Source: Deltaproteobacteria bacterium
Lineage (GTDB): Bacteria > Desulfobacterota > B13-G15 > RBG-16-54-18
NCBI GenBank assembly: GCA_019308925.1
Contig: JAFDHG010000003.1
Span: forward strand, 3,367 to 67,366
Reading direction: 5' to 3'
DNA: 64,000 nt
Made by a program: the position numbers and the translations under genes. This document shows positions 4,479 to 47,278 of this stretch, in pieces. Each line of letters opens with the position of its first letter. Within the stretch, counting starts at the first letter, position 1. The notes beneath the pieces are model-generated. The model was not told the origin of the DNA, made no database searches, and saw nothing but the letters and a program-made list of their open reading frames with translations.

Positions 4479-4483
4479 AAGGT

Positions 4484-5701
4484 CTATAGGTCCTCCTTTG
4501 CGAAGATCAGTGCCGTGCAGTTGCCACCGAAGGCAAAGGAGTTGGACAGGACGATCTCCGTCTTCTCTTTCCTGGCCAGAGGGACATAATCGAGATCGCA
4601 GATCTCGTCCCCCCGCTCAAATCCGGCGGTGGGGGGGAGAAAGTGGTGATGGATGGCCAACAGTGAGGCCACCGCCTCCATCCCTCCTGCGGCCCCCAGA
4701 CAGTGTCCGATCATAGATTTGGTGGAGCTGACAGGGATTTGATACGCCTCCTGTCCCCATACCTCCTTTATGGCCAGGGTCTCCACTCGGTCGTTGAGGA
4801 TGGTCCCGGTGCCATGGGCGTTGATGTAATCGACCTCTTTTGCCTCAATCCCGGCATCCTGCAGGGCCTCTTTCATGATCCTCGCCTCCTCCCTCCCCGT
4901 CTCCTCTGGCGCGGTGATGTGGAAGGCCTCTCCTCCAATGGAGTAGCCCAGGAGCTCCCCGTATATCTTTGCCCCTCTCCCCAAGGCCCTCTCCCTATTC
5001 TCCAGGATCAGTATCGCTGCCCCCTCCCCCAGGGAAAGCCCTTGTCGGCGGGTGTCAAAGGGGCGACATGGTAAGGAAGCCATGACCTTCAATGAGCAGA
5101 ACCCGCCGAAGGTAAGCTCACTTAAGGCCTCCCCCCCACCGCAGACCATCACCTCGGCCTCCCCCAATCTGATGAGTTCGGCCCCGTAGGCGATGGAGGT
5201 GGCAGAGGAGCTGCAGGCGGTGGTGATGGTCGCCTTGGGGCCTTGAAGCTCGTACCTTTCAGCCAATTGATCAGTGGCATAGCTGGGGATGAAGGGAACA
5301 AGGAGAGATGGCCTGGGCCTTGCTCCTGCTAAGAGTTGACGGTGGTACACCTCAGCTGAGTGCATACCCCCTGCACCTGCCCCGAGGCAGACCCCTATCA
5401 TCTCCCTATCGCCTGGTCCGGGCCTCAGCTCGGCATCGGCGAGGGCCTCTTGGGCAGCGATCAGGACGAACTGATCTGCCCGGGAAAGGCGGCGTAGCTC
5501 CCTTTTGTCAAAAGACCCCAGGGGGTCGTATCTCTCGATCTGCGCCGCCACCTGCGAAGGGTACCCGGATATATCGAAGAGGGTGATCTTCCTGATCCCC
5601 CCTTTCCCCTCCCACAGGGAGGCCATAAACTCCCCTAAATTCCCCCCTGTGGCGCAGATGATCCCCATCCCTGTGATGACCACGCGCTTTTTACCCTTCA
5701 T
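4484..5701 (-). CDS. Beta-ketoacyl-ACP synthase II-like (FabF family)
   Basis: RVVITGMGI...; active Cys in TACSSSATS; catalytic His motifs INAHGTGT and KSMIGHCLGAAG are present; start set at MKGKK to avoid overlap. Confidence 0.8.
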   Translation of the reverse strand: MKGKKRVVITGMGIICATGGNLGEFMASLWEGKGGIRKITLFDISGYPSQVAAQIERYDPLGSFDKRELRRLSRADQFVLIAAQEALADAELRPGPGDREMIGVCLGAGAGGMHSAEVYHRQLLAGARPRPSLLVPFIPSYATDQLAERYELQGPKATITTACSSSATSIAYGAELIRLGEAEVMVCGGGEALSELTFGGFCSLKVMASLPCRPFDTRRQGLSLGEGAAILILENRERALGRGAKIYGELLGYSIGGEAFHITAPEETGREEARIMKEALQDAGIEAKEVDYINAHGTGTILNDRVETLAIKEVWGQEAYQIPVSSTKSMIGHCLGAAGGMEAVASLLAIHHHFLPPTAGFERGDEICDLDYVPLARKEKTEIVLSNSFAFGGNCTALIFAKEDL

Positions 5702-6722
5702 TTTCCTTTCTCTGGGCAATCAGGTCCAAGAAGGCCTCCATGCGTGTCTTCATCCCCTCCAAGGTGGTGTGTTCGTCGAAGGTAAGGGTCATGAAGGGGA
5801 TATTCCCCCTCCTGTTCGTCCCCACCATCCTTTTGAGAAACTCTTGCATCAGGGCATCTATGCCGCACTTAAAGGAGGTGACAAAGACAATGCCGTCGAC
5901 ACCCCCCTGTTCGGCGAAGTAGAGGATGCTCCCCACTACCTCCCTCGCAGTCTCCCAGTAGATCTCCTTGGATAGCAAGGAGACCCTCCGCTCCCTTTCT
6001 TTAAGGGGTATTATATCAGAGGTCACTATCTTTGTCCCCCATCCCTTGGCCAGGGTGAGGAGGTCTTTGTTGATGAAGGGGTCAAAGAGGTTATAGGGAC
6101 GGCCGATGAAGGCTACCTTAAATTGGTAGTCCCTTTCCTCTGCCGAAGGGGTAGGGAGCGCTGGATCAAAGATCTCCTCTGTCCGCATGGTGTTTATCCT
6201 TTCAGTCAGCTCCCTGCTAAATATCCGGTAGCGCTCCTGTCCCATCTGGTATGCCTGACGCACTTTTTGGGGGTCTATTACCGTTCGTTTCGCCATGTCG
6301 AGGAAGAAGTTGTGCAGTCCCTTTCTCCCCTGGCGCAGGTCTATCACCCCATCCCAGATCTCCAGCTTCCCCTTCAAGGCCAATCTCAGCACATCGGGTG
6401 CCCCTCGGAACTTGGGGCAGAGGATATGGCGGCCCTCCAGACTGATCAAGCGGGGCAGGAAGATGGCATCCACCTTCCCCACCAGGCTTTGGGAGTGGGG
6501 GATCAACAACTTTAAGGGGAGGCAACTATCCTCGTAGTAGGGGATACCTTTTCGCAAGATGTGGTAGACCTCCTCATCGGAGGTCATCACCTCCATCCCC
6601 AATTCCTGCAGGAAGGTCCTCCAGAGGGGGAAAAGCTTGTAATACATCAAGGCCTTGGGGATACCGATGCGCATGAGCAAAAATCCTTTCCTTTTATCGT
6701 CGGCAATTTCAAAAGATATCAT
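5691..6722 (-). CDS. DUF2229-like protein (domain normally partnered with CoA-substrate-specific enzyme activases)
   Basis: 343 aa; MRIGIPKALMYYKLFPLWRTFLQELG resembles the conserved N-terminus of activase-associated DUF2229 proteins; no BadF/BcrA-type ATPase is adjacent. Confidence 0.5.
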   Translation of the reverse strand: MISFEIADDKRKGFLLMRIGIPKALMYYKLFPLWRTFLQELGMEVMTSDEEVYHILRKGIPYYEDSCLPLKLLIPHSQSLVGKVDAIFLPRLISLEGRHILCPKFRGAPDVLRLALKGKLEIWDGVIDLRQGRKGLHNFFLDMAKRTVIDPQKVRQAYQMGQERYRIFSRELTERINTMRTEEIFDPALPTPSAEERDYQFKVAFIGRPYNLFDPFINKDLLTLAKGWGTKIVTSDIIPLKERERRVSLLSKEIYWETAREVVGSILYFAEQGGVDGIVFVTSFKCGIDALMQEFLKRMVGTNRRGNIPFMTLTFDEHTTLEGMKTRMEAFLDLIAQRKENEG

Positions 6723-10405: not shown

Positions 10406-11827
10406 GTGGGAGGTCCTTTGCTCAGCAAGGTCTTTACATGGTTGCTCATTTTTCTTCTCATCCCCCCTTTTTTTCTGACCTCCCCTGCTGCCCAGGGGAA
10501 GTCTTTGGGATTTTGGCCCTTTTTTTCGTACTACGAATCCGAAAGCCTCAAGGAATTGGAGGTCCTGGGACCCTTTTTTGTCTGGCGGGAGACTGAAGAT
10601 GGTAAGGAGTGGGGGATCAGGCCCTTTGTGTACCGTGCTACCGATCCCTCCCGGGAGGTCGAGCGTACGGAGTTCCTGTACCCTCTGGGGAAATATCAGC
10701 ATGTTCAGGGTGACACTAAGTTCTATCTTGTTCCGGTCAGCCTATCGCGGGATGAGGTGACCTATTCTTCCCCCGAAAGGAGGGAGAAGGCCTCCTCCAT
10801 CCTCACTGCCTTTTGGGGAGAGACGGATACAGGTGAGCGGTACGGGGGGTTTTTCCCACTGACCGGACACTTGAAGGAGCGGTTCGGTAGGGATGAAATT
10901 ACGTTTCATCTGTGGCCCCTGTATTCGCAGATTAAGAACGAGGGTGAGGTTACGTGGCGGATACTCTGGCCATTTATCTCTGTAACCAGGGGAGCGGCAG
11001 AGGGTGTGTATCTGTGGCCTCTCTGGGGTCATAAGGTGAGGAAAGGTGAGTATTCCAGAGGGTTTTTCATGTGGCCCTTTTATGCCTATTTTGATGAAGA
11101 TATGGACACCGATACGCCGGTACAAAAGCGGTATTATCTCCCGTTCTATGCATCGATTCGGTCACCTCAAACGACCGTTGATATGGTTTTCACCCCCTTC
11201 TTGTTCCATCAGAAGAGCGATACGCCTGCCTTCGAAAAGTGGGCGCTCTGGCCCATCGCGACGAAGATTGAGGGAGATAAAATTCGAGAGAGGAGACTCT
11301 TCCCTTTGTTCCGCAAACGGGAAGAGCCTGGGAAGGAGCGGCGCTTTTTTCTCTGGCCCCTAAATTCCTATGAGTTTGATCGATTTGGGACAGAGGAACA
11401 GGAGGTACACCGTTTCCTACTCATCAATAGGTACAGGATAGTTAGGGATGTTGGTACGGGGACAGAAGCCATCGATGCCAATCTCTGGCCCCTCTTTGAC
11501 TATCGTCAAGGGTTTGAGGGTGAGGTAAGCCTTTATATCTTTCCCCTTCTCCCCCTCCACGATGAGGGGATGAAGCGCAACATCTACCCCCTTTTTTGGG
11601 TCTACCGATATACTCGCTCCCCAGAGGGGGAGACTCTGTCAGACCTCCTCTGGGGGCTTTACAGACGCAGGAGCTCACCTCAGGTTTCATTTACCCAACT
11701 TGCCTTTTTCCTGCGCATCGAGAAGAAACACAATGGAGATTTTTATTTATCCTTTTTCGAGGGATTGTTCCGCTATCAGAGGACGAAGGAGGGGGAGATG
11801 ATGAGATTTCTGTTTATTGATTTTTGA
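10406..11827 (+). CDS. Signal-peptide protein with about ten degenerate W-P-L/F repeats; probably continuous with the downstream OmpA-like domain
   Basis: Signal peptide; recurring h-LWPL/F motifs about every 20 aa (LWPLYSQ, ILWPFISV, YLWPLWGH, FMWPFYAY, ALWPIATK, FLWPLNSY, NLWPLFDY, IYPLFWVY); reading frame ends at a T5 run. Confidence 0.5.
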   Translation: MGGPLLSKVFTWLLIFLLIPPFFLTSPAAQGKSLGFWPFFSYYESESLKELEVLGPFFVWRETEDGKEWGIRPFVYRATDPSREVERTEFLYPLGKYQHVQGDTKFYLVPVSLSRDEVTYSSPERREKASSILTAFWGETDTGERYGGFFPLTGHLKERFGRDEITFHLWPLYSQIKNEGEVTWRILWPFISVTRGAAEGVYLWPLWGHKVRKGEYSRGFFMWPFYAYFDEDMDTDTPVQKRYYLPFYASIRSPQTTVDMVFTPFLFHQKSDTPAFEKWALWPIATKIEGDKIRERRLFPLFRKREEPGKERRFFLWPLNSYEFDRFGTEEQEVHRFLLINRYRIVRDVGTGTEAIDANLWPLFDYRQGFEGEVSLYIFPLLPLHDEGMKRNIYPLFWVYRYTRSPEGETLSDLLWGLYRRRSSPQVSFTQLAFFLRIEKKHNGDFYLSFFEGLFRYQRTKEGEMMRFLFIDF

Positions 11828-12959: not shown

Positions 12960-15900
12960 TTAGACTCCCTGTTGAGATAGATAATCACCCAGAAACCTGG
13001 CGGTATATGATTTGTCCTTCTGCTCTATGATCTCCCATGGGTTGCCCTGGACGACAATGTGGCCTCCACCTGCTCCGCCTTCAGGACCAAGGTCGATGAT
13101 ATAATCGGCCTCCTTAATCACCTCCAGGTTGTGTTCGATGACTACTACCGTGTTTCCCCTGTCTATTAGATTTTGCAGTACCTTCAGCAGTTTTTCAATA
13201 TCCGCTATGTGGAGGCCGGTGGTCGGTTCATCCAAGACGTAGAGGGTCTTTCCCCTGGAGGGCTTGCAGAGCTCGGCGACCAGTTTTACCCTCTGTGCCT
13301 CCCCCCCAGAGAGGGTGGGGCTCGGTTGCCCAAAGGTGAGGTAGCCGAGCCCCATATCCACGATCATCTGCAGGATCCGCTTCACCTTGGGTATGGCGGA
13401 GAAGAACTTCAGGCCCTCCTCAAAGGTCATCTCCAAGACCTGGTGGATGTTTTTGCCCTTGTAGATAACAGAGAGGGTTTCATCATTGTAGCGGCGCCCA
13501 GAGCACCCGTTGCAGTACACATATACATCAGGCAGAAACTGCATCTTGACCTTGATCTTGCCCTGGCCTGCACACTCCTCGCACCTCCCCCCTTTTACGT
13601 TGAAGGAGAACCTCCCCGCTCCATACCCCCTTCCCCTCGCCTCGGGGGTCAGGGAGAAGATGCGTCTTATTTCATCGAAGAGCCCCACGTAGGTGGCAGG
13701 GGTGGAGCGAGGTGTCCTCCCGATAGGGGAGTGGTCCACCTCCAAGACCCTCTCCAGATGCTTCCATCCCCTGATCTCGTTGTGGGCCCCCACCTTTCCC
13801 TTGGCGTCGCTCAAGAGGTTTCTCAGCCCACAGAAGATGGTCTCCTTCAGGAGGGTAGATTTCCCCGATCCTGAGACCCCGGTGATACAGGTGAAGCTGC
13901 CCAATGGGATACAGACATCGATCTCCTTCAGATTGTGTTCCCTGGCTCCCAGGACCCAGAGCCATCGCCCCTCCTTGGGTGGGCGCAGGCGGGAGGTGAT
14001 CTTTCTTCGACGACGGCCGTTCAGGTAGGCACCGGTGATCGAGGCGGGGCAGCTTTGGATCTCCTCCAGGGTGCCGGCAGCTACCACCCTCCCTCCATGT
14101 ACCCCCCCTCCAGGCCCTAAATCTATGATGTAGTCCCCCCTTCTAATGGTCTCCTCATCGTGCTCCACCACCATGATGGTATTGCCTCGGTCCCTCATCT
14201 CCCCGAGGGTGGCCAGCAGCATCTGGTTGTCCCGGGGGTGCAGCCCAATGGTGGGCTCATCCAGGATATAGCAGACCCCTCTCAGGTTGGAGCCGAGCTG
14301 GGCAGCCAGGCGGATCCTTTGGGCCTCTCCCCCTGAGAGGGTGTCCCCTCGGCGCTCCAGGGTGAGGTAAGAGAGCCCAACCCTGTTGAGGAACTGGAGC
14401 TTGGTCATGACCTCTCTGATGATCCCCTCGGTAATGGGTATCTCGGCCTCATCAAAGTGGAGCTCCCCAAAGACCCTCTCGGCATCCTGCGCTGACAGGG
14501 AGACAAGATCCCATATTCCCCACCCCTTCACCTTTACCGCTAGGGCGTTCTCCTTCAGGCGTTGCCCCTTACAGAGGGGGCATTCTCTCTCCCCCATATA
14601 GGGGAGCAGGTAATCAAGGAGCCCATTCCCCTCGGCGTATCGGAGCAGCTCCCTCAGGATAGGGATCACCCCCTGGAATCCATCGCCACCATGGAGGATC
14701 TTTCTTTTTATCTCCTCCCTCAACTCCACCAGGGGCCTGTCCAGGGGGATGCCGAGCCTTTTATGGATCTCCCTGAGGACCTTCCCTTTCTGTCTTCGCA
14801 GCGGCCCCTCCTCAAAAGGGGTCAAAGCACCCCCTTCAAGAGACCTCTTCGGCTCAGGCAACACCAGGTCATCGACGAAGTCGCTCAGGCTTCCCAGCCC
14901 CTGACAATAGGGGCAGGCCCCGTAGCGACTGTTGAAGGAGAAGAGCCGTGGATCGAGCTCCTCAAACCCTATGCGGCACCGAGGACAGTAGAGCCGCTGG
15001 CTGAAGATCCTCTCTTCCCCGTCATGGGCCAGGAGATAGATGGTTCCCCTGCTCAACTGCAGGCCCCTGTGCACCACCTCCATGAGCCCGGAGCGGCCCC
15101 CCCGGCTGATCTCCCGCTGATCCACCACTACCTCTATGTCATGCTCTTGGTAGCGGCTCAAAAGTGGTAAGGGGTCAAGATCCACCATCACCCCGTCGAT
15201 TCTTGCTTTGGTGTAGCCAGCCCGCCTCGCCCCCTCCAAGGCCTCCTTGTGAAACCCTTTGCGCCCCATCACCAAGGGGGCTAGGATGGCCACCTCCCTT
15301 CCCCCGTAGTCCTTTATGATCTCCTGTGTGATCCCCTCCAGAGGGTGCGAGGAGATCTCCCCGCCACAGTGGGGGCAATATTGCACCCCTACTTTGCTGT
15401 ACAGCAGCCTCAGATAGTGGTAGATCTCCGTCATGGTGGCCACGGTGGAGCGACTCCCCCCTTGACTGATCCTCTGCTCGATGGCCACGGTGGGGGGGAT
15501 GCCGGTGATGAGGTCCACGTGGGGTCGGTCCATGATCTTGAGGTACTGCCTGATGTACGAGGAGAGGCATTCCAGATAGCGCCTTTGTCCCTCGGCGAAG
15601 ACGACATCGAACGCCAGGGTCGATTTTCCCGAGCCGCTCATGCCGGTGATGATCACCAGCTGGTCCCTGGGGATGGCCAGTTTGAGGTCACGCAGGTTGT
15701 GCTCCCTGGCCCCGGTGATGCAGATGGCCCCTCTATCAGTCCCTTTTTCCTCCTTCAGTTCCAGGGGCGTTGGGAGAACTTTTACCTCCTCCCCCTTCAG
15801 ATATCTATGCAGGAAACGCCCGGTATGGGAGCTCTCACATTCCGCCACCTCCTCGGGGGTGCTGGCGATCACTACGTACCCTCCCTCTTCGCCGCCCTCG

Positions 15901-18530
15901 GGCCCGAGGTCGATGAGGTAATCTGCGCACTTGATCACGTCCATATTGTGCTCGATGACCACCAAGGTATTTCCTTCCTCCACCAGCCTGTCGAAGGCGG
16001 ACAGTAACTGGCGGATATCGTCAAAGTGCAGTCCTATGGTGGGTTCGTCGAAGATGAACAGAGTGTTCGCCCTTCCCCGTTTCATGTACTGGGCCAGCTT
16101 CAACCTCTGGGCCTCTCCCCCTGAGAGGGTATTTATCGGCTGCCCTAGCCTCATATACCCCAACCCCACCTCCACTAGGGGAGACAGGGAGGCGGTGATC
16201 CGGAGATGGTCGCAGAAGAACTCTATGGCCTCCTGGGCCGTCATCTCCAGGACATCGTTGATATTCTTTCCCTGGTAGGTAACCTCTAAGATCTCATCTT
16301 TGAACCTCTTGCCCCTGCAGACAGGGCAGGTGATGTAGACGTCAGAGAGGAACTGCATCTGGACCTTTTCGAACCCCTCACCCTGACACTCCTCACACCT
16401 GCCTCCAGGGACATTAAAGGAGAAGGTCCCCGGGGTATATCCCCTCGCCCTGGAGAGGGGAACTCGGGAGAACAGGTGACGGATGGGGTCGTAGGCCTTG
16501 AGGTAGCTGATGGGGTTGGCCCGCGGGGTCTTCCCGATGGGCCTCTGGTCTACCAGGACCACCTCGGAGACCAGATCAGCCCCAGTGATCTCCTTAAACC
16601 TTCCCGGCCTCTCTTCATGGGCGCCCTTGGCCCTCTTGAGCCCCTTGTAGAGGATATCCTCGGCCAGTGTGCTCTTACCTGAGCCGGAGACCCCGCTGAT
16701 ACAGGTCATCAGCCCCAGGGGAATCTCCAGGTCGATCCCCTTCAAGTTGTGCTCTTGGGCCCCGCGGACCCTGATCACCTCCCCTTCTTTGGGTCTGCGG
16801 CGCATTGTGGGAACAGGTATCCGCAGGTCACCCTTTAGATACCTACCCGTGAGGGACCCTGGCTCCTGCGTGATTCCGGCTATGGGGCCATGGTAGACCA
16901 AGGTTCCCCCCTTCTCTCCGGCCCCTGGCCCCAGGTCCACGATGTAATCGCATCCCTTGACGATCTCTGTGTCGTGTTCCACCACCACTACCGTGTTTCC
17001 CATCTCCCTGAGGGCCTGAAGGATCTGCACCAAGCGGTGGCTGTCCCGGGGGTGTAGTCCGATGCTTGGCTCATCCAGGATATATAAGGTGTTCACCAAG
17101 GAAGAGCCCAGGGCCTTGGTGAGGCTTACCCGTTCTACCTCCCCTCCTGAGAGGGTGCGGGACTGGCGCTCCAGAGTAAGGTAGGCTAGCCCCACCTCCA
17201 TCAGATACCACAGCCTCCCGGTGATCTCCCGCAGGAGGAGCCCGGTCACCTCATCACCGGGCAACGCACTGAGCTCATTGAAGAACTCCTGGGCCTCACC
17301 GATGCTCATGGCATAGACCTCGGCGATGTTTTTTCCCTTTATCCTCCAAAGGAGCGCTTCATTCTTGAAGCGCGTCCCAACGCAGCTGGGGCAGGTCACA
17401 TAACTGCGATAGCGGGACAGAAAGACACGAACATGGAGCTTATACCTCTTGGTCTCCAGCCAGCGGAAGAATCCCCTCACCCCGTAAAACTTCCCATCGC
17501 CGTCGATGATGGCCCTTTTGTCCTCCTCCTTGAGGTCCTTGAAAGGGATGTCAGTGGGGATCCCCCGACGCCGGCAGAAGGTCATCAGGTCCTCGAACTC
17601 CAGACGGGCGATCCCGGTCCACGGTTTGATGGCCCCTTGGCGCAAGGTCTTGTTCTTGTCAGGGACTACCAGGTCGAGATCGATGTCGATGACCCGACCA
17701 AACCCCCGGCAGGTCTTGCAGGCCCCGATGGGGGAGTTGAAGGAGAATAGATTGGGGATGGGGTCCCGATATGAGATATCGCAGTAGGGGCAGTGCAGCC
17801 GGGTACTGAAGCGCAGGGTTTCCCCTCCAAGGAGGTGGATCGCCATCTCTCCTTTCCCGAACGTGAGGGCCTGCTCAAGGGAGTCGATGCACCGCTTCCT
17901 TTCCTCGGGCCGGAAGACCAGACGGTCGACTACCACCTGGATCTCCTCCCCCGTTTCTACACCCCCCTCCAGGGGTGTCACCTCCCCATCTCTGAGGATC
18001 CGGAAGAACCCCAGACCTGCGAGGCGGCTTGCAGCCTGCTCTGGTGAGATTCCCTGCAGGCGGAAGGGAAAGGTGATGACCATCTTTGTGGCGGAGGGGA
18101 GCTGAGAGAGCTCGGCGAAGATGGTTTGAGGGGTATCCCGCTGCACCTTACGGCCACACCCCCGGCATGAGAGCTCGGCAATGCGGGCAAACAGCAACTT
18201 GGTATAATCGGTGATCTCAGTCATGGTCCCCACGGTGGAGCGGGAGGTCTTGACCGGGTCCCCCTGCTCGATGGCTATGGCCGGGGGGATCCCCTCTATC
18301 CTCTCCACGTGGGGCCTGTCCATGCGGTCCATGAACTGGCGGGCATAGGGGGAGAAGGTTTCCACATAGCGGCGCTGGCCCTCTGCATATAAGGTGTCGA
18401 AGGCGAGGCTTGACTTCCCTGAGCCGCTCACCCCCGTGACGACGGTGATCTTCTGCAAAGGGATCTCGAGATCGAACCCCTTCAGGTTGTTCTGCCTGGC
18501 CCCGATGACCTTTATGGCCTTCTCACCCAT
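12960..18530 (-). CDS. uvrA: Tandem-fused double UvrA (two full excinuclease ABC subunit A units in one 1856-aa polypeptide)
   Basis: Four Walker A sites (GVSGSGKSS, GVSGSGKST, GMSGSGKST, GVSGSGKST) and four LSGGE signatures; each half has Walker A to signature spacing of about 425 aa and Cys-rich zinc modules as in UvrA; single uninterrupted ORF. Confidence 0.85.
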   Translation of the reverse strand: MGEKAIKVIGARQNNLKGFDLEIPLQKITVVTGVSGSGKSSLAFDTLYAEGQRRYVETFSPYARQFMDRMDRPHVERIEGIPPAIAIEQGDPVKTSRSTVGTMTEITDYTKLLFARIAELSCRGCGRKVQRDTPQTIFAELSQLPSATKMVITFPFRLQGISPEQAASRLAGLGFFRILRDGEVTPLEGGVETGEEIQVVVDRLVFRPEERKRCIDSLEQALTFGKGEMAIHLLGGETLRFSTRLHCPYCDISYRDPIPNLFSFNSPIGACKTCRGFGRVIDIDLDLVVPDKNKTLRQGAIKPWTGIARLEFEDLMTFCRRRGIPTDIPFKDLKEEDKRAIIDGDGKFYGVRGFFRWLETKRYKLHVRVFLSRYRSYVTCPSCVGTRFKNEALLWRIKGKNIAEVYAMSIGEAQEFFNELSALPGDEVTGLLLREITGRLWYLMEVGLAYLTLERQSRTLSGGEVERVSLTKALGSSLVNTLYILDEPSIGLHPRDSHRLVQILQALREMGNTVVVVEHDTEIVKGCDYIVDLGPGAGEKGGTLVYHGPIAGITQEPGSLTGRYLKGDLRIPVPTMRRRPKEGEVIRVRGAQEHNLKGIDLEIPLGLMTCISGVSGSGKSTLAEDILYKGLKRAKGAHEERPGRFKEITGADLVSEVVLVDQRPIGKTPRANPISYLKAYDPIRHLFSRVPLSRARGYTPGTFSFNVPGGRCEECQGEGFEKVQMQFLSDVYITCPVCRGKRFKDEILEVTYQGKNINDVLEMTAQEAIEFFCDHLRITASLSPLVEVGLGYMRLGQPINTLSGGEAQRLKLAQYMKRGRANTLFIFDEPTIGLHFDDIRQLLSAFDRLVEEGNTLVVIEHNMDVIKCADYLIDLGPEGGEEGGYVVIASTPEEVAECESSHTGRFLHRYLKGEEVKVLPTPLELKEEKGTDRGAICITGAREHNLRDLKLAIPRDQLVIITGMSGSGKSTLAFDVVFAEGQRRYLECLSSYIRQYLKIMDRPHVDLITGIPPTVAIEQRISQGGSRSTVATMTEIYHYLRLLYSKVGVQYCPHCGGEISSHPLEGITQEIIKDYGGREVAILAPLVMGRKGFHKEALEGARRAGYTKARIDGVMVDLDPLPLLSRYQEHDIEVVVDQREISRGGRSGLMEVVHRGLQLSRGTIYLLAHDGEERIFSQRLYCPRCRIGFEELDPRLFSFNSRYGACPYCQGLGSLSDFVDDLVLPEPKRSLEGGALTPFEEGPLRRQKGKVLREIHKRLGIPLDRPLVELREEIKRKILHGGDGFQGVIPILRELLRYAEGNGLLDYLLPYMGERECPLCKGQRLKENALAVKVKGWGIWDLVSLSAQDAERVFGELHFDEAEIPITEGIIREVMTKLQFLNRVGLSYLTLERRGDTLSGGEAQRIRLAAQLGSNLRGVCYILDEPTIGLHPRDNQMLLATLGEMRDRGNTIMVVEHDEETIRRGDYIIDLGPGGGVHGGRVVAAGTLEEIQSCPASITGAYLNGRRRRKITSRLRPPKEGRWLWVLGAREHNLKEIDVCIPLGSFTCITGVSGSGKSTLLKETIFCGLRNLLSDAKGKVGAHNEIRGWKHLERVLEVDHSPIGRTPRSTPATYVGLFDEIRRIFSLTPEARGRGYGAGRFSFNVKGGRCEECAGQGKIKVKMQFLPDVYVYCNGCSGRRYNDETLSVIYKGKNIHQVLEMTFEEGLKFFSAIPKVKRILQMIVDMGLGYLTFGQPSPTLSGGEAQRVKLVAELCKPSRGKTLYVLDEPTTGLHIADIEKLLKVLQNLIDRGNTVVVIEHNLEVIKEADYIIDLGPEGGAGGGHIVVQGNPWEIIEQKDKSYTARFLGDYLSQQGV

Positions 18531-18727
18531 TTCGATATCATTTTATCCCCTTATTGGGGAAAGGGAAAGGGGGTCTTTTGGGGGTTATTGGACTGTTATT
18601 CCGTGATTTAAGTTCAGGTTCAGTTTTTTTCAATAAGTTGCTTTATCAGTAACTTTGTTCTGGCATTAAAGCCTGTATTTGATAAAATGATAAAAGTTAA
18701 ACCCTTACTGAGGAAGGAGGTTGGATT

Positions 18728-19294
18728 ATGGATAAAAAATTTTTCTATTTTTTGTTAGTAGCTGGATTGGTTGTTTTTGGAATAGTGCTAGCAGGATATG
18801 GAAAAGAGAGAAAAGGCACTGCAAAGGTAAAGGTAGAGGGATCCCCCAAAATTGCGGAAGTAAGAGCATTGAGGAATGTTATAGAGATAAAAGCAGAAGG
18901 GGAAATTCTGCATTATCAAAAAGAATCTCTTTGGAATGAAGAAGATTTTTCTGAAATCCTGGGATCAAGAAAGAAATTTGAGTCTACAGAGGTCGGTTCT
19001 TTTAAGAAAAACGTGGAAAGATATAACAGATATGTCGTTGATTCTAAGGTTGAATTCAATAAAGCAAGGAAATCAACCACTTTAATATGCGATGTGAAGG
19101 GGGCAAAAGCAGGATCTTGGTATGATTTTGATTGGTTTCTAAGGCCTCGCGGTTTAGACTTCATTGACAGTCATTTTAACAGAAGAGAAAAGGAGCTTTA
19201 TTGGGAAGGGGAAATCAATGGGATAAGAACATCAATAAGCATAAAGTTCCCTTTTCTTATTTCTAATTGCCATGAGCATGTCTGGCCAAGGTAA
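18728..19294 (+). CDS. Hypothetical membrane-anchored protein (lower-GC region)
   Basis: 188 aa; N-terminal transmembrane helix; Lys/Glu-rich; RBS GGAAGGAGG upstream. Confidence 0.4.
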   Translation: MDKKFFYFLLVAGLVVFGIVLAGYGKERKGTAKVKVEGSPKIAEVRALRNVIEIKAEGEILHYQKESLWNEEDFSEILGSRKKFESTEVGSFKKNVERYNRYVVDSKVEFNKARKSTTLICDVKGAKAGSWYDFDWFLRPRGLDFIDSHFNRREKELYWEGEINGIRTSISIKFPFLISNCHEHVWPR

Positions 19295-19296
19295 GA

Positions 19297-19515
19297 ATGA
19301 TAATAGTAAAATGCGCTAAATGTAAGAGGAAGATATTTAGATACCTGAAGATTGGAAAAGGGCGATTATGGCACTGCTGGAAGGATCGAATAATCGAGGA
19401 TTATAGTATCCGAGATGGAAATGACATTAAATGTCAATGCGGCAATTTAATTGGTATTGATGAGGTGAAATGGATTAAAATTTACCCCGTTAGATGTATA
19501 ATTGTCGGACGATAA
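19297..19515 (+). CDS. Small Cys-rich zinc-ribbon-like protein
   Basis: 72 aa with CAKCKRK...C..C pairs; translationally coupled to the upstream ORF. Confidence 0.3.
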   Translation: MIIVKCAKCKRKIFRYLKIGKGRLWHCWKDRIIEDYSIRDGNDIKCQCGNLIGIDEVKWIKIYPVRCIIVGR

Positions 19516-19630
19516 ATTAATTGATGTCAGGAAAGTATAAAGGCGGTTAATATGAACTGAATATCTAACGAGACGAACAACATTCTTTTACATATTCAGG
19601 AGCAACAACAAGAAAATAGGGGGTAAAAAG

Positions 19631-20272
19631 ATGAAGATCACCATTGTTTATGATAACACTGTTTACCAAAAAGATCTTAAATCCGATTGGGGTTTTTCTT
19701 GTCTTGTAGAAGTAGAGGACACGCCGAAAATCCTTTTTGATACAGGCACAAGGGGTTCCATACTTCTTTCGAATATGCAAAAACTTAATATTGATCCTGC
19801 CTTGATTGATGAAGTCTTTATTTCCCATGCCCATTTTGATCATATAGGTGGTCTCTCAGCCTTTCTTGATGTGAAAAGCGATGTTACAGTCTATGTTCCC
19901 ATTTCAGCCAGAGGAGTTCGTGGTGCAAAGGAGGTAATCTCTGTGAGTGAGCCCCTAAAGATCCATGAGAATGTGTTCTCTACTGGAGAACTCGACCACA
20001 TAGAACAATCCATGGCAGTTAAGACAGACAAAGGGGTAGTTTTGATTGTAGGATGCTCGCATCCAAAGATGGCACATATTCTTAAAGCGGCTTCTCAATT
20101 TGGGAAGCTCTATGCGATTGTTGGTGGGTTACACGGATTTAGTGAGTTCTGGTTGTTTGAAGACTTAGAACTGATTTGTCCTACCCATTGTACTCAACAT
20201 AAAGCAGAGATAAGGTCTTTGTACCCGGAACAATACATTGATGGTGGAGTAGGGAAAGTAATCGTGTTCTGA
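19631..20272 (+). CDS. MBL-fold metallo-hydrolase
   Basis: 213 aa; HAHFDHIGG metal-binding motif. Confidence 0.7.
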   Translation: MKITIVYDNTVYQKDLKSDWGFSCLVEVEDTPKILFDTGTRGSILLSNMQKLNIDPALIDEVFISHAHFDHIGGLSAFLDVKSDVTVYVPISARGVRGAKEVISVSEPLKIHENVFSTGELDHIEQSMAVKTDKGVVLIVGCSHPKMAHILKAASQFGKLYAIVGGLHGFSEFWLFEDLELICPTHCTQHKAEIRSLYPEQYIDGGVGKVIVF

Positions 20273-20322
20273 AGTTAATGTGTTTAAGCCCTTGAAACGC
20301 TGAGTATCCAGGAGGTGCGGTC

Positions 20323-20519
20323 GTGGCGGAGAAGGTTATCATATTCGGGAAGGCGGGTTGACCCTATACTGCGCAGGCTAGGTCAGCCTACGGCGACGCT
20401 GCAGAGTACCATGGTGTCTACGCAGCCCCCCAAAACTCCAGGAGATGCTGAAGTATTCCAATGGCGCTCGGCAAGTGCCCGTCATTGTTGAAGGTGACAA
20501 CGTAATGATCGGTTATGGA
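20323..20519 (+). CDS. Candidate selenocysteine-containing glutaredoxin-like protein (YruB/Grx-like; needs UGA recoding and a frame change at a C6 run)
   Basis: RBS AGGAGG, 6 nt, GTG; MAEKVIIFGKAG-[TGA]-PYTAQARSAY; SECIS-like hairpin aggct-AGGUC-agcct at 20375-20389; C-terminal KLQEMLKYSNGARQVPVIVEGDNVMIGYGG lies in the +1 frame. Confidence 0.4.
20375..20389 (+). promoter_or_regulatory. SECIS-like hairpin downstream of the in-frame UGA
   Basis: 5-bp stem aggct/agcct with apical loop AGGUC, starting 13 nt after the UGA at 20359-20361. Confidence 0.35.
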
Positions 20520-20609
20520 GGCACCTGAGGAGTTTAATCACCGGTAGTTTGCCGGTAATGTTCCATCTGTGGAGTTCCTGCAGGATAAGTCTCGCTAGGT
20601 GTCTTTGAT

Positions 20610-21158
20610 ATGCCTTCAAGATCAAAACTCCTGATCCTAACCCTCCTGATGGAGGGTATGGTGTTGATAGTGGCCTTGCTTTTAGCGAGGCTCTTGGGAA
20701 TTGCTTTGTTTCCTTTAACTAAGAATCTTTTATATGATATCCTGTTGGGGACCTGTGGAGCTGTATTCCCTTTGGCTCTATTTGTTTTTTCCATTTCGAA
20801 AAAGGCAGAAGCTATTCCCCTATTAAGGTCAGTCAGAAAGACAGTAATGACAGAGATAAGGGCCGTATTTTCTATGACCAGATTGATAGATTTATGCTTC
20901 ATTTCTCTCTTTGCAGGTTTTGCTGAGGAATTTTTATTTCGGGGAGTGATTCAAATCAAATTGGGTATTGTCGCAGCAAGTATCATTTTTGGGCTTCTTC
21001 ATTGTGTGACCCCTGCCTATGTTGTTCTTGCTACAATTATAGGATTCTATATCGGCATCTTATACTATTTGAGTCAGAGCCTTCTTATACCTATTCAATT
21101 GCATTTTATCTATGATTTTGGAGCGCTGATCTATTTAAGATATTTTGTGAACGAGTGA
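20610..21158 (+). CDS. CPBP-family (CAAX) intramembrane metalloprotease
   Basis: 182-aa polytopic protein; motifs FAGFAEEFLFRG and LLHCVTP. Confidence 0.7.
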   Translation: MPSRSKLLILTLLMEGMVLIVALLLARLLGIALFPLTKNLLYDILLGTCGAVFPLALFVFSISKKAEAIPLLRSVRKTVMTEIRAVFSMTRLIDLCFISLFAGFAEEFLFRGVIQIKLGIVAASIIFGLLHCVTPAYVVLATIIGFYIGILYYLSQSLLIPIQLHFIYDFGALIYLRYFVNE

Positions 21159-21194
21159 CATGGAACAAATCTCCTGACTGGACTGTCTAACTGG

Positions 21195-21800
21195 ATGAAG
21201 GGAAAAAAGCAGACAAGAGATGAAGATTATGGGCTTGTATCTTTATGTAAAAAAGGTGATATAGATGTCTTTGAAGTATTGGTAAGAAGGCACCAGAAAA
21301 GGATGCTCAATATCGCCTACAGGATAATCGGGGACTATGCAGAGGCATGCGAGATCGTGCAGGAGGCATTTGTCTCTGCATATAGAGGCATCAAGAGTTT
21401 TAAAGGAAAGGCCAAGCTCTCTACATGGCTTTATACTATAGTCATTAATCTTTCAAAAAACCGTCTGAAACAGTTGAAGACCCAACTTTATCGCGAAAAA
21501 TTTTCGATAGATGATCCTGTTCCTACAACTGATGGCGAGATACAAATAGAACCCGCATCGAGTGAGCCCTCTGCCCTTGAAAGGCTCGAAAAACGAGATA
21601 TCCAGCAAAAGGTGCAGGGATGCATAAACGCCCTCGATACCGAATTCAGAGAGGCACTCATTCTGAGAGATATACAGGGTTTCTCCTATGAGGAAATAAG
21701 CGACATGCTTGAGGTACCAGAAGGTACTGTTAAATCAAGGCTTTTCAGGGCAAGGGAGGCTGTAAAGGACTGTTTAAAGAAATGGGTTGGAGATTTGTAG
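21195..21800 (+). CDS. ECF (sigma-24 family) RNA polymerase sigma factor
   Basis: 201 aa; region 2 (AQEAFVSAYRG) and region 4 HTH (EEISDMLEVPEGTVKSRLFRAR). Confidence 0.85.
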   Translation: MKGKKQTRDEDYGLVSLCKKGDIDVFEVLVRRHQKRMLNIAYRIIGDYAEACEIVQEAFVSAYRGIKSFKGKAKLSTWLYTIVINLSKNRLKQLKTQLYREKFSIDDPVPTTDGEIQIEPASSEPSALERLEKRDIQQKVQGCINALDTEFREALILRDIQGFSYEEISDMLEVPEGTVKSRLFRAREAVKDCLKKWVGDL

Positions 21801-22721
21801 ATGGAATGCAGCGAGGTTCAAAAAAGGCTATCAGCCTATATAGAAGGCACTATTTCTCCAGAAGAAAAGGTGCTCATTGATGAGCATCTCACCTCATGTC
21901 AGAGATGCAATGATGCTCTTTCTGACCTGGAGAAGACCATTGAGTATATCCAGGAGCTCGAAGAAATAGAGCCTCCTGCATGGCTCGCGCAGAAGGTTAT
22001 GGCGAGGGTCCAATCAGAAGCTGAATCGAAGAGAGGAATCCTGCGAAGGTTATTTTACCCGATCCCGATAAAGCTGCCCATTGAGGCGGTTGCCGTTGTC
22101 TTAATTGCAGTAGCCACGATATATGTCTTTAAGACCATGCAGCCAGAGATGAAACTTGTACAGGCACCCTCAGAGGAGGTGGCATCTCAAATTCTTTCAC
22201 AAGAAAAAGAAAAAACACTTGCTATTGAGGAGGGCAAACCTGTTCCTGCCAAGCCAGCAGAGCGATTCATGCTTGCAGAAGAAGAGACCCAAGCAAGAAA
22301 ATATGCAGGAGCACCCAAGGCCCCTGCGAAAGTTGCAAAAGGAGGCAAGGTTGAGCCACCAGCAGGCGCTGTTGCAAGGGATGAATTAAAACGAGAAGTT
22401 GTATCAAAAGAATCCAGAGCAAGGACATTGGCTGAGAGAAGAGAGGAGGGTATTGGTTTAGCTGTTAATGTCCGAGACATTGAGACTGCCAGTAAAGAGA
22501 TTGAGGAAGTTCTTATGCAGCTTGGAGGGAAGATAATCCGAACAGAATCTCTTGAGAATAAAATTGTCATCGCCGCAGAGCTTGACTCTCAAAAGGTGAA
22601 TGAATTACTTGAAAAACTAAAGGCGATTGGGGAGGTTAAAGAAAAGGGGATGGCATTAGAGGTTTGGGAAGGTGAAGTAGAGATAAGGATAGAGCTTGTA
22701 AAAACGCCAATACATCCTTGA
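21801..22721 (+). CDS. Anti-sigma factor (zf-HC2 type) with transmembrane segment and C-terminal domain
   Basis: Start codon overlaps the sigma gene stop; HLTSCQRCNDAL zinc-finger motif; a hydrophobic helix around aa 95-115. Confidence 0.65.
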   Translation: MECSEVQKRLSAYIEGTISPEEKVLIDEHLTSCQRCNDALSDLEKTIEYIQELEEIEPPAWLAQKVMARVQSEAESKRGILRRLFYPIPIKLPIEAVAVVLIAVATIYVFKTMQPEMKLVQAPSEEVASQILSQEKEKTLAIEEGKPVPAKPAERFMLAEEETQARKYAGAPKAPAKVAKGGKVEPPAGAVARDELKREVVSKESRARTLAERREEGIGLAVNVRDIETASKEIEEVLMQLGGKIIRTESLENKIVIAAELDSQKVNELLEKLKAIGEVKEKGMALEVWEGEVEIRIELVKTPIHP

Positions 22722-22787
22722 AAAAAGACTTGACATGACCTTATACATAAAGTACGTTATATCGTACGTAATTAAAGAGGGTTTATC

Positions 22788-23030
22788 ATGACCACTATTA
22801 CTGCAACTGAAGCAAGAAAAAGATTATACCGACTTCTAGATGAAATTAGCGAGTCTCACGAACCGGTACATATCACTTCTAAGCGTAGTAAAGCCGTGCT
22901 TGTCTCTGAAGGCGACTGGCGTTCTATCCAAGAAACACTTTATTTGCTCTCAATTCCTGGCATGCGAGAGTCAATTGTCGAAGGATTAAAGACACCGGTC
23001 GAAAAATGTGAGCAGGAACTTGACTGGTGA
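22788..23030 (+). CDS. Phd/YefM-family antitoxin
   Basis: 80 aa; TATEARKRLYRLLDEI...VLVSEGDWRSIQETLYLLS is the typical YefM fold signature. Confidence 0.8.
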   Translation: MTTITATEARKRLYRLLDEISESHEPVHITSKRSKAVLVSEGDWRSIQETLYLLSIPGMRESIVEGLKTPVEKCEQELDW

Positions 23031-23290
23031 AATGGCAACTTGTCTATACCAGACAAGCTCGAAAAGATGCCAGAAAACTTGCAGCTTCGGGGTTACGCCA
23101 CCAAGCAGAGCAGTTACTTAAAATCTTACGTGAAAATCCTTATCAAGATCCTCCACCTTTTGAAAAATTGGTTGGAGATTTGGAAGGTGCTTTTTCAAGG
23201 CGTATAAATATCCAGCATCGCCTTGTATACCAGATTCTCGACGAAATTAAGAGCGTAAAGGTAGTTCGAATGCGGACACATTATGAGTAG
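23027..23290 (+). CDS. YoeB/Txe-family toxin (RelE superfamily)
   Basis: 87 aa; 4-nt overlap with the antitoxin gene; LSGDLEGAFSRRINIQHRLVYQI motif. Confidence 0.8.
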   Translation: MKWQLVYTRQARKDARKLAASGLRHQAEQLLKILRENPYQDPPPFEKLVGDLEGAFSRRINIQHRLVYQILDEIKSVKVVRMRTHYE

Positions 23291-23575
23291 GCACAAGGCT
23301 AACCAGTCGTTGCCCTGACCTCTATTCCGTTGACACTCAATAGAGGTAGGTGATCTTAATCGTTAGGACGGCGCGGAGGGCCGCTGACTCATTTAAACGT
23401 AGAAAATTAAGCTCACCCCTCCAAAATCCATCTGCCAACCCATCCCACCAAAGGGGCCTTAAAGCTACATTTTCCTCAGCATTCACCATAAAAATAGGCC
23501 GTGTTCGGGAACTTTTTGGAGACTTTTTTTGTCTTATGAACTAGCACAAGTCAAAAATATTAAAGGAGGTTTGAA

Positions 23576-25033
23576 ATGAAAAGGAAATATCATTACATTG
23601 CCTTGGTGGCTATGCTTTTGGTAGGGATCGGCTGTAGCGCATTGGCAGTTGCAGGGAGAGGGGCAGAAAAACCTGTAGCCCTTTCAACTACACTGGAGGA
23701 CCAGACAGGGGTGGCAGTGACCATCTATAATGTCAACCTCGGGCTTGTGAAAGACCAGAGGAAGATAAGCATTACGAGAGGGGCAGGGGAGTTGAGGTTT
23801 ATGGGTGTGGCATCTAAGATAATTCCTACAAGCGTCTCTATAAGATCCCTCATAGACCCTAAAAGCCTTCAGGTCCTTGAACAGAACTATGAGTATGACC
23901 TGCTCAATCCGAAGAAGCTCCTCGACAAATATGTGGGTAAGGAGGTGAAACTATACTACAGAAATCCATACACAGAGAGAGAAGAGATTGTGAGGGCCAC
24001 ACTCCTATCGAATAATGGAGGCCCGATATTTAAAATCGGGGATGAGATAACCTTCGGGCATCCTGGAAGGATCATATTCCCCAAGGTCCCGGACAACCTT
24101 ATCTCAAAACCGACCCTTGTCTGGCTCGTTGAAAACACCCTCTCAAAGGCCCAGAAGATCGAGGCATCATATCTCACAAATGGCATCAACTGGCGGGCTG
24201 ATTATGTTGTCACATTGAACGACAGAGACGATAGGACTGACCTTACTGGCTGGGTTAGCATTGATAATAAGAGTGGTGCAACATATAAGGAGGCAAAACT
24301 CAAACTGGTGGCCGGAGATGTCCACAGGGTTAGAGACAAATGGGAATATAAGGACAAGATGCTTCGTGCAGCAATGGCAGAGGCAGCGAAAGCAAAACCC
24401 CAGTTTAAGGAGGAGGAATTCTTTGAGTATCACATATACACCCTGCAGAGGCCAGCAACGATTAGACAAAATCAGACAAAACAGATAATGCTTGTGAGTG
24501 CCGATAACATCCCTGTCAAAAAAGAACTCCTCTACTATGGCGCAAGATTTTATTACCGCAACAGACACGGCCAGACGATATCGAACCAGAAGGTTGGTGT
24601 GTTTGTAGAGATAAAAAATAAGAAAGAGAATAACCTGGGTATCCCCCTTCCCAAAGGCACGATAAGGGTCTACAAACATGACAAGGAGGGAAGCCTGCAA
24701 TTTGTTGGCGAGGACTCTATAGACCATACACCAAAGGACGAGAAGGTCAGGATAAAGCTCGGAGACGCCTTTGATGTGGTTGGAAGTAGAAAACAGACGG
24801 ACTGGAAAAAGATTGCCTATGATACATACGAGGCGAGCTTTGAAATCTCTCTGAGAAATCACAAGAAGGAAGATGTCGTTGTGAAGGTTGTTGAGCCCAT
24901 ACCAGGAGACTGGAAAATGCTCAGTTCGTCTCATAACTATACAAAGACAGAGGCATTTACTGCTGAGTTCAATATTAAAGTCCCCAGAGACAAAGAGACA
25001 AAGCTTACATACAGGGTGAGGATGAGATTTTAG
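23576..25033 (+). CDS. Lipoprotein, DUF4139/DUF4140-like
   Basis: 485 aa; lipobox LVGIGCS; beta-rich, Lys-rich; architecture recalled from conserved hypothetical lipoproteins; weakly supported. Confidence 0.45.
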   Translation: MKRKYHYIALVAMLLVGIGCSALAVAGRGAEKPVALSTTLEDQTGVAVTIYNVNLGLVKDQRKISITRGAGELRFMGVASKIIPTSVSIRSLIDPKSLQVLEQNYEYDLLNPKKLLDKYVGKEVKLYYRNPYTEREEIVRATLLSNNGGPIFKIGDEITFGHPGRIIFPKVPDNLISKPTLVWLVENTLSKAQKIEASYLTNGINWRADYVVTLNDRDDRTDLTGWVSIDNKSGATYKEAKLKLVAGDVHRVRDKWEYKDKMLRAAMAEAAKAKPQFKEEEFFEYHIYTLQRPATIRQNQTKQIMLVSADNIPVKKELLYYGARFYYRNRHGQTISNQKVGVFVEIKNKKENNLGIPLPKGTIRVYKHDKEGSLQFVGEDSIDHTPKDEKVRIKLGDAFDVVGSRKQTDWKKIAYDTYEASFEISLRNHKKEDVVVKVVEPIPGDWKMLSSSHNYTKTEAFTAEFNIKVPRDKETKLTYRVRMRF

Positions 25034-25315
25034 ATGATTTAAAAGGGGTGTGGCCATAAATGAGATCGTCGTCAGACCTACATAGAAAGAGAGACGAAAC
25101 TGTTTAGCTTTATTTTGTTGACAAACCCCTATTTATCTGCTATGGTCGCCTGGGTTTGATAAGTGGAGATCTATTGAGGGCGGAAGGATGATCTCGGTGG
25201 GGTCCCTGGATAGTTTTCCTTTTTGTCCTCAGAGTATCCTGCTTATCAAAGAGAGGCCTGCGATGGGCGGGGCCTCAGAGAGTTTAAATTTTTGTTTGAA
25301 GGAGGAATGGGAAGT

Positions 25316-25516
25316 ATGGTTAAAGGACGAGTAAAATGGTTTAACGACAAGAAGGGGTATGGCTTCATCGAAAGGGATGACGGAGACGATGTTTTTGTCC
25401 ACTACACGGCCATCTCGGGGGAAGGTTTCAAGACCCTTTATGAAGGACAAGAGGTAGAGTTTGAGATCACGCAAGGCCCTAAAGGACCCCAGGCCTCCAA
25501 GGTATCTCTGGTCTGA
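25316..25516 (+). CDS. Cold-shock protein (CspA family)
   Basis: [30 protein letters not shown]...; RNP1/RNP2 motifs; RBS AAGGAGG 10 nt upstream of this ATG. Confidence 0.85.
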
Positions 25517-25570
25517 TCCCTTGAGGCCCTTTCAAGGGGACCCTCAATGAGGGTCCCCTTTTTTATGCCA

Positions 25571-26149
25571 TTATCTCAACCCATCTTCACCCTTTATTTC
25601 CTCTTTCTTCAATCCACCAATCCGTGCCAGAGGTCTTCCTGAATCAGTGACCACGATAGCGACCAGTATTTCGTCGTTTTTTGGAGCGTCCGGGATCCGT
25701 ACTTCCATGGCGTCATAGTGGGTACGAACGAAGGCAGCATCCTTAAAGTGAAGGGGGACGTCAATGGGCGTTCCTGCAGTCCCCCGTTTCCCCGCCGAGG
25801 GGATGATGGCCTTACCGCCGCCTACCTGCTCCCGCAGCGGTTTCCCCAACTTGGGGTGCAGGATAGCGTGAAGGTGTTCTAATTCTCCATCAAGGCCTAC
25901 GATTGCCGCCTTTCCGTAGTCTTGGGCCTTTTCCTTCGGGATCCCCAAGGCAGCGACAGCCCGTTCTCCTAACATTGCCCCCAACTGCTCACCGTAATCC
26001 ATGAGTTCAGAGAGATCATCCACGTATTGATTGGCAAAGGGGTTTTTGATCACCGCTATGGCTGCAGCCTTTCGGGTGGGAGGAGATATCTCCTTTTCCC
26101 CTTCCCTTTGGATCTCCTCCACTATGGTGACGACCTTTCTTATCTCCAT
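25571..26149 (-). CDS. Amino-acid-synthesis family protein (PF06684-like), function unknown
   Basis: 192 aa; family assignment by recalled similarity, not verified. Confidence 0.45.
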   Translation of the reverse strand: MEIRKVVTIVEEIQREGEKEISPPTRKAAAIAVIKNPFANQYVDDLSELMDYGEQLGAMLGERAVAALGIPKEKAQDYGKAAIVGLDGELEHLHAILHPKLGKPLREQVGGGKAIIPSAGKRGTAGTPIDVPLHFKDAAFVRTHYDAMEVRIPDAPKNDEILVAIVVTDSGRPLARIGGLKKEEIKGEDGLR

Positions 26150-45116: not shown

Positions 45117-45290
45117 AGGGTTCAAGGGGCCACGGGTTCTAGGGTTCAAGTGTTTATGCATTCATGGGGTTAATCACTCGACCCCTTGAATCCTGCCGCC
45201 AGCGGCATCCCGCTTCCTTAAATCTATATTGTGGGGCGGGATTGAATCCTTGACCCCTCAGTCCCGCCCTTGGCGGGGCAGTTTACTTTT
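45117..45290. repeat. Copy C of the dispersed palindromic repeat family, with an embedded terminator-like hairpin
   Basis: aagggttcaaggggccacgggttctagggttcaag ... cactcgaccccttgaatcc ... ggattgaatccttgacccct; hairpin cccgcc-cttg-gcgggg followed by cagtttacttttt. Confidence 0.55.
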
Positions 45291-47202: not shown

Positions 47203-47278
47203 CCCATGTCCCCTTTTGCCAAAGTGTATGTCACCAGCCTCAGCTATGTCAAGCAAAGGGATATGTCTATGAGAGGTT

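Follow-up and report, generated by a model that had tools for sequence, protein, structure and literature searches.

A tandem double UvrA with two complete class I units in one polypeptide of a deltaproteobacterium

The 64-kb window analyzed here (64,000 nucleotides of contig JAFDHG010000003.1 from a Deltaproteobacteria bacterium) carries on its minus strand a gene for an 1856-residue protein that consists of two UvrA units in tandem. An earlier note on this DNA, made from the sequence alone, had described a single minus-strand open reading frame (ORF) with four Walker A sites and four LSGGE signatures, all of which were found in place. According to the ORF list, the reading frame is unbroken across both units. 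The units, referred to below as the N unit and the C unit, each comprise two nucleotide-binding domains (NBD-I and NBD-II) with their Walker A and ATP-binding cassette (ABC) signature motifs, a UvrB-binding domain and an insertion domain. The features of the gene, in the order of translation, are as follows (aa, amino acid residues).

12960..18530, minus strand: whole gene for the 1856-aa tandem double UvrA; a single ORF with an ATG start, the stop codon counted
15798..18530, minus strand: N unit, aa 1–911, with NBD-I, NBD-II, three zinc modules and the UvrB-binding and insertion domains (E. coli UvrA alignment, PDB, NCBIfam)
18411..18434, minus strand: Walker A of N-unit NBD-I, GVSGSGKS, aa 33–40 (motif scan and conservation)
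17835..18134, minus strand: UvrB-binding domain of the N unit, aa 133–232 (PF17760, 45 bits)
17394..17708, minus strand: insertion (DNA-binding) domain of the N unit, aa 275–379, between CKTC271 and CPSC380 (PF17755, 50 bits)
17139..17153, minus strand: ABC signature LSGGE, aa 460–464 (encoded by one copy of repeat family D1)
16671..16694, minus strand: Walker A of N-unit NBD-II, aa 613–620 (motif scan and conservation)
16113..16127, minus strand: ABC signature LSGGE, aa 802–806 (motif scan and DNA repeat analysis)
15735..15797, minus strand: inter-unit linker, aa 912–932, KGEEVKVLPTPLELKEEKGTD, about 21 residues (outside the positions aligning with the E. coli UvrA termini)
12963..15734, minus strand: C unit, aa 933–1856, a complete class I UvrA (E. 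coli UvrA alignment, PDB, NCBIfam)
15621..15644, minus strand: Walker A of C-unit NBD-I, GMSGSGKS, aa 963–970 (motif scan and conservation)
15027..15338, minus strand: UvrB-binding domain of the C unit, aa 1065–1168 (PF17760, 84 bits)
14583..14903, minus strand: insertion domain of the C unit, aa 1210–1316, between CPYC1206 and CPLC1317 (PF17755, 34 bits)
14325..14339, minus strand: ABC signature LSGGE, aa 1398–1402 (motif scan and DNA repeat analysis)
13857..13880, minus strand: Walker A of C-unit NBD-II, aa 1551–1558 (motif scan and conservation)
13299..13313, minus strand: ABC signature LSGGE, aa 1740–1744 (motif scan and DNA repeat analysis)

In addition to the Walker A and signature motifs, the motif scan (patterns G.SGSGKS for Walker A, DEP for Walker B, EH[DN] for the H-loop and CxxC for zinc-binding pairs) detected four Walker B motifs and four H-loops. 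Thus, the protein has four complete ATPase sites, two per unit. There are 12 CxxC pairs, six per unit at equivalent positions, corresponding to three zinc modules per half, and the C-terminal zinc-finger pattern GGRCE.C...C..C is conserved in both units. The N-terminal Walker A is separated from the signature by 427 aa in the first half and by 435 aa in the second, in agreement with the spacing of about 425 aa and the Cys clusters reported in the earlier note. Across 165 members of the lineage to which the protein belongs (defined below), residues of the Walker A, Walker B, signature and H-loop motifs are 93–100% conserved at all four sites.

For pairwise comparison the protein was cut between residues 926 and 927, giving halves of 926 and 930 aa, which align with each other over their entire length (44% identity, E = 0). 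Residues 4–940 of E. coli UvrA align with both units, at 18515..15798 for the N unit (45.0% identity) and at 15725..12978 for the C unit (46.7%). Moreover, each half matches the class I UvrA chains 2r6f, 3pih, 9gxk and 3zqj over their full length. Against 2r6f, the N half scores 904 bits and the C half 1000 bits end to end; the corresponding scores with class II structures are 602 and 612 bits for 2vf7, and 499 and 436 bits for 7sh1. The Pfam cutoffs that apply to the domains listed above are 23.3 bits for PF17760 (UvrB-interaction) and 23.2 bits for PF17755 (UvrA DNA-binding/insertion). The NCBIfam equivalog models for UvrA, PRK00349 (cutoff of at least 1147) and TIGR00630 (at least 729.8), each match the whole protein twice, with scores of 2279 and 2223, respectively. 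Taken alone, the C half exceeds both cutoffs (1202 and 1169), and the N half exceeds that of TIGR00630 (1061). The C unit is the more canonical of the two. Taken together, the four-copy motif set, the paired domains and the end-to-end structure matches exclude chance similarity, and the pair of Pfam domains and the class I structures matched by each half bear out the earlier description of two full-length UvrA-like halves. At the same time, the textbook UvrA is a subunit of about 940 aa in a non-covalent homodimer, and the window protein is something else: one 1856-aa chain with two non-identical units.

Class II UvrA proteins are defined by the absence of the UvrB-binding domain (PMC3167621, PMC9328131). 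Since both halves carry PF17760, neither of them is class II. A class I/class II split between the halves is ruled out by the same domain and by class I scores that are far higher in both. Therefore, the UvrA1/UvrA2-like division of labor suggested in the earlier note does not hold, as both halves are class I by domains and scores.

The linker bounds were taken from a three-way alignment with E. coli UvrA, whose termini fall at aa 911 and aa 933. Both the sequence and the length of the linker vary among homologs, the median distance from TG.FL to GA.EHNL being 32 aa. As the window contig is metagenome-assembled, we considered that an error in sequencing or assembly might have merged two adjacent uvrA genes, or that the gene might represent a collapsed or chimeric tandem duplicate. 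This explanation is effectively refuted. Identity between the halves is just 44%, and they have no long DNA repeats in common; the repeats between them are motif-coding stretches of 23–52 nt with 71–84% identity. The GC content is even across the unit junction. Furthermore, the same unbroken fusion is present in independent assemblies from 80 species-level genomes and in more than 100 protein clusters (NCBI, JGI, ENA, Logan). In the genome scan, which used one genome per species and of which the best 80 loci were analyzed, all 80 matches are in one frame without a stop at the junction, and E. coli UvrA aligns twice in each. A frame check found 74 of these loci clean, one with masked Ns and five whose only stop is the natural one, shortly before the match ends. 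The low identity, the short repeats, the even GC content and the in-frame junction in 80 loci together rule out a collapsed tandem duplicate.

How widespread is this architecture? A protein identical to that of the window is present in NCBI and JGI under the name 'MAG: excinuclease ABC subunit UvrA [Deltaproteobacteria bacterium]' (MAG, metagenome-assembled genome), and the best 120 homologs all have lengths of 1750–1900 aa. Each of the 80 loci covers query residues ~1–1855 within one stretch of 5.3–5.6 kb. They come from Thermodesulfobacteriota (Desulfobacterales, Desulfatitalea), Binatia, one Cellvibrionales MAG and Verrucomicrobiota including Akkermansia and Rubritalea. The closest relative among them (CP070817.1, 86% identity) is encoded on a MAG 'chromosome' of 1,094,362 bp, a size suggesting that the window organism may belong to a small-genome deltaproteobacterial lineage. 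We also compared a profile of the two halves with 1.84 billion cluster representatives (50% identity) and took the best 150. All of these turned out to be two-unit UvrA proteins, almost always 1300–2340 aa long. An HMM-based parse of the homologs and representatives found two UvrA units in 269 out of 269. Doubles were further identified in Chloroflexota and in Ca. Kinetoplastibacterium crithidii, an endosymbiont with an 817-kb genome. Among complete proteins, the architectures are distributed as follows (B, UvrB-binding domain; I, insertion domain).

BI+BI, the type of the window protein: 102 proteins
BI+B-: 90 proteins
-I+-I, double class II: 26 proteins
Rarer architectures: 15 proteins

The -I+-I doubles, found in 26 representative clusters (including P0196, P0222 and P0232), are about 1600 aa long, and neither of their units has a UvrB-binding domain. 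Their existence indicates that fusion also occurred in the UvrB-independent, drug-resistance-type branch. Two other representatives, P0123 (2334 aa) and P0129 (2343 aa), have an extra C-terminal extension of about 350 aa that starts at residue ~1990; a Pfam search at E ≤ 1e-8 gave no match for it.

Annotation resources already recognize this tandem architecture, as NCBIfam has a curated model of 1809 positions for 'excinuclease ABC subunit A' (NF001885/PRK00635) that, like the window protein, contains two UvrA units per chain. We take this model to represent the UvrA of Chlamydia. With it, the window protein reaches 1253 bits, the cutoff being 3054, and the first half of the model is the part to which each half of the protein aligns best. 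Doubles from Akkermansia, Rubritalea, Cellvibrionales, Binatia and Kinetoplastibacterium are likewise under the cutoff. By these scores, neither the window protein nor the five others belong to PRK00635, and the window protein represents a different lineage with the same architecture. Overall, fused double UvrA proteins form a large, diverse and already catalogued group, so that the architecture is real but not new. The novelty implied by the earlier note was overstated, given an identical annotated protein, 150 of 150 double representatives and a curated model.

We next consider the evolutionary relationship between the two units. Identity over core columns is 0.54 between the N half and E. 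coli UvrA, 0.55 between the C half and E. coli UvrA, and 0.50 between the two halves. Each half is thus slightly nearer to E. coli UvrA than to its partner, which indicates that the duplication or fusion is old. In all 165 proteins passing this identity criterion, unit 1 is nearer to the N half of the query and unit 2 to the C half. In a neighbor-joining tree, the N units fall into one clade and the C units into another (best-split Jaccard values of 0.94 and 0.90). In bootstrap trees, the largest clade without any C unit contains, on average, 98% of the N units; in 62 of 100 replicates it includes every one. The separate clades point to one fusion followed by divergence within this lineage. 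We accordingly define the window lineage as proteins having two units in frame, of which the first is an ortholog of the N units and the second an ortholog of the C units of other members; the window protein belongs to this lineage, for which 165 proteins pass the identity criterion. In short, there was one old fusion in this lineage, and its N units and C units are separately orthologous. In doubles of the Chloroflexota type, unit 1 and E. coli UvrA share about 60% identity. Judging from such sequence comparisons with one single-unit reference, these and other groups of double UvrA probably arose independently.

Domain content of the two units was counted over 148 complete members of the lineage. 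The UvrB-binding domain is present in 148 of 148 N units and in 148 of 148 C units. By contrast, the insertion domain is found in all 148 N units and in only half of the C units (74/148). In homologs of about 1750–1810 aa, the region corresponding to query residues ~1216–1312, that is, the C-unit insertion domain, is deleted. These deletions have several distinct boundaries, and partial ones distinguish proteins that share 93–95% core identity. On the neighbor-joining tree, presence or absence of the domain changes at least 13 times, a figure that may be inflated by tree error. It is certain, however, that the C-unit insertion domain was lost in more than one event. The asymmetry also extends to sequence conservation. 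In proteins that retain both insertion domains, mean pairwise identity of this domain among orthologs is 0.59 in the N unit and 0.34 in the C unit, whereas for the UvrB-binding domain the values are equal in the two units (0.40 and 0.42). The window protein itself keeps both insertion domains. Sequence comparison of the relatives thus indicates a C-unit insertion domain that appears to be under relaxed constraint, fast-evolving and dispensable. The functional asymmetry between the halves proposed in the earlier note is supported by this family-wide pattern and not by the window protein alone. The insertion-domain asymmetry is the sole result that goes beyond existing annotation, and it is a small lead.

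How does the window protein compare with known systems? Each of its units has the same domains in the same order as the subunits of canonical class I homodimers (E. coli; Geobacillus stearothermophilus, 2r6f; Thermotoga maritima, 3pih; M. tuberculosis, 3zqj), namely, NBD-I with signature domain I holding the UvrB-binding and insertion domains, followed by NBD-II with signature domain II and the C-terminal zinc finger. Unlike in those homodimers, its 'protomers' are linked covalently and share only 44% sequence identity. The covalent joining and the sequence divergence would make the dimer an obligatory 1:1, asymmetric one, as opposed to a symmetric homodimer assembled in solution. Class II proteins (Deinococcus radiodurans UvrA2, 2vf7; Ecm16, 7sh1; DrrC) share the ABC core with the window units and, as described above, also have tandem-fused versions. 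However, they lack the UvrB-binding domain, which both window units possess, and act without UvrB (PMC3167621, PMC9328131).

An analogy may be drawn with another family of repair sensors. There, a transition from homodimer to heterodimer is represented by bacterial MutS2 and eukaryotic MSH2–MSH6. By analogy, duplication of UvrA might have written permanently into the sequence an asymmetry which, in the homodimer, arises only on DNA. MSH2–MSH6 belongs to a different protein family and is encoded by separate genes, whereas in double UvrA the copies are fused in one chain.

Architecture, four intact ATPase sites, both UvrB-binding domains, conservation of the fusion in many genomes, the separate orthology of N and C units and the insertion-domain asymmetry are established by these observations. 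We assign a probability of roughly 0.7 to the interpretation that the window protein is a single-chain pseudo-heterodimeric class I UvrA acting in nucleotide excision repair. The proposed mechanism draws on established knowledge of UvrA2 and UvrA2B2 (reviewed in PMC7835731). In each unit, NBD-I would pair with its own NBD-II, as in ordinary UvrA. The N and C units would fold together as an intramolecular pseudo-dimer, with the linker of about 21 residues between them. The pseudo-dimer would scan DNA, sense lesions and pass them to UvrB via the two retained UvrB-binding domains, and one insertion domain per molecule would be enough. One polypeptide with two complete UvrA units makes the covalent pseudo-dimer suggested by the earlier note the natural reading. 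Moreover, since the units have diverged, with the N-unit insertion domain kept and the C-unit one repeatedly deleted, a fixed pseudo-heterodimer appears to be the best description.

It is conceivable that the units pair between chains instead. The result would be either a dimer of doubles (in effect, a UvrA tetramer) or an arrangement with domain-swapped NBDs, with four UvrB-binding sites or some other geometry. The linker of about 21 aa could permit either arrangement, and it connects NBD-II of the first unit to NBD-I of the second, which could in principle pair. Such pairing is less parsimonious, however, as each unit has the full set of parts and a conserved intra-unit linker between its NBDs. 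Also, restriction of insertion-domain loss to the C unit fits a fixed 1:1 N–C pairing better than N–N and C–C contacts. We therefore consider inter-chain pairing improbable.

A more specific possibility concerns the cellular role. The single-chain pseudo-heterodimer may be the sole UvrA of these organisms, an obligate, intrinsically asymmetric sensor in which both units would still recruit UvrB and the N-unit insertion domain alone would be required to clamp DNA and discriminate damage. This proposal is tentative, its chances being a little short of even. The presence of doubles in the 817-kb genome of Ca. Kinetoplastibacterium and in the 1.09-Mb genome of the closest relative suggests that they are capable of serving as the housekeeping UvrA. 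To our knowledge, the only uvrA of Chlamydia is the double-length one. Alternatively, the double UvrA could be a specialized paralog that coexists with a separate single-unit uvrA and performs another task, such as tolerance of adducts or DNA-binding toxins in the manner of DrrC and Ecm16. UvrA paralogs with roles outside nucleotide excision repair are well documented (PMC9328131), and the double uvrA has no repair-gene neighbors. On the other hand, a UvrB-independent paralog would not need the UvrB-binding domains that both units retain in all 148 relatives, domain content and scores place both units in class I, and a redundant uvrA is unlikely in genomes as small as those just mentioned. On balance, a specialized paralog seems unlikely, though somewhat less so than inter-chain pairing.

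Several observations weigh against a pseudo-heterodimeric class I UvrA serving in nucleotide excision repair. With a PRK00349 score of 1083, the N half falls just below the equivalog cutoff of 1147, which also favors the paralog explanation. The Q-loop of N-unit NBD-I is less conserved than that of the C unit, and the N unit lacks the basic residue upstream of PIGRTPRS (NBD-II region) that is kept in the C unit and in E. coli UvrA; on account of these two differences, the N unit may have diverged from the canonical role. The neighbor-joining trees include E. coli UvrA as their sole single-unit reference. No further uvrA, no uvrB and no uvrC were found within the window or within 10 kb around the 80 related loci. 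Finally, the full-text literature searched contained no paper, structure or biochemistry on a fused UvrA, in keeping with the statement in the earlier note that no characterized example was known.

Turning to the genomic context, the double uvrA looks monocistronic. It is convergent with a gene for an FKBP isomerase, and its divergent neighbor is an ORF of 188 aa (18728–19294, plus strand) with an N-terminal hydrophobic segment and no Pfam match. The surrounding genes are of the housekeeping type: Mla transport, alanine racemase, an OmpA-like protein, an ECF sigma/anti-sigma pair, SecA and SelB. Promoter and terminator scans of the uvrA flanks revealed nothing above shuffled sequences, and no LexA-type site was established there. 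A direct repeat, CTGAAC-CTGAAC, is located at 18612–18623 (minus-strand reading), about 85–95 nt upstream of the uvrA start codon. Directly upstream of uvrA, at 18500–26000, the GC content is 0.36–0.48, compared with 0.54–0.61 inside the gene and 0.55–0.59 in most of the window; this region could be an island or simply a run of AT-rich genes.

Three other loci of the window deserve mention. Downstream of the Mla genes, an ORF of 473 aa (10406–11827, plus strand) without a Pfam match contains many repeats of the W-P-[LF]-[FWY] type (LWPLF, WPFISV, LWPLWG, MWPFYAYF). The selenocysteine-specific elongation factor SelB (45283–47298, minus strand), with GTP_EFTU and SelB winged-helix domains, indicates that the organism uses selenoproteins. 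Two adjacent β-ketoacyl synthase genes (3267–5719 and 5691–6722, both on the minus strand) lie beside a DUF2229 gene of the CoA-enzyme-activase type.

As a discovery, the double UvrA is of small value: tandem doubles are abundant in databases and automatically annotated as UvrA, and one lineage even has a curated model. Their potential lies rather in what they may offer as a tool. How damage search, discrimination and UvrB loading are divided among the protomers of UvrA2 and its four ATPase sites is still debated (PMC7835731). Mutation of a single protomer, impossible in a homodimer, is possible in a natural single-chain pseudo-heterodimer. The family has never given up a UvrB-binding domain or the N-unit insertion domain but has lost the C-unit insertion domain repeatedly, a pattern which hints that one insertion domain per dimer suffices. 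If the double protein is indeed the sole UvrA of these organisms and an asymmetric sensor, it would represent a natural 'hard-wired heterodimer' and would demonstrate that UvrA2, although a symmetric dimer, acts asymmetrically on a lesion, with the four ATPase sites and each insertion domain open to mutation separately.

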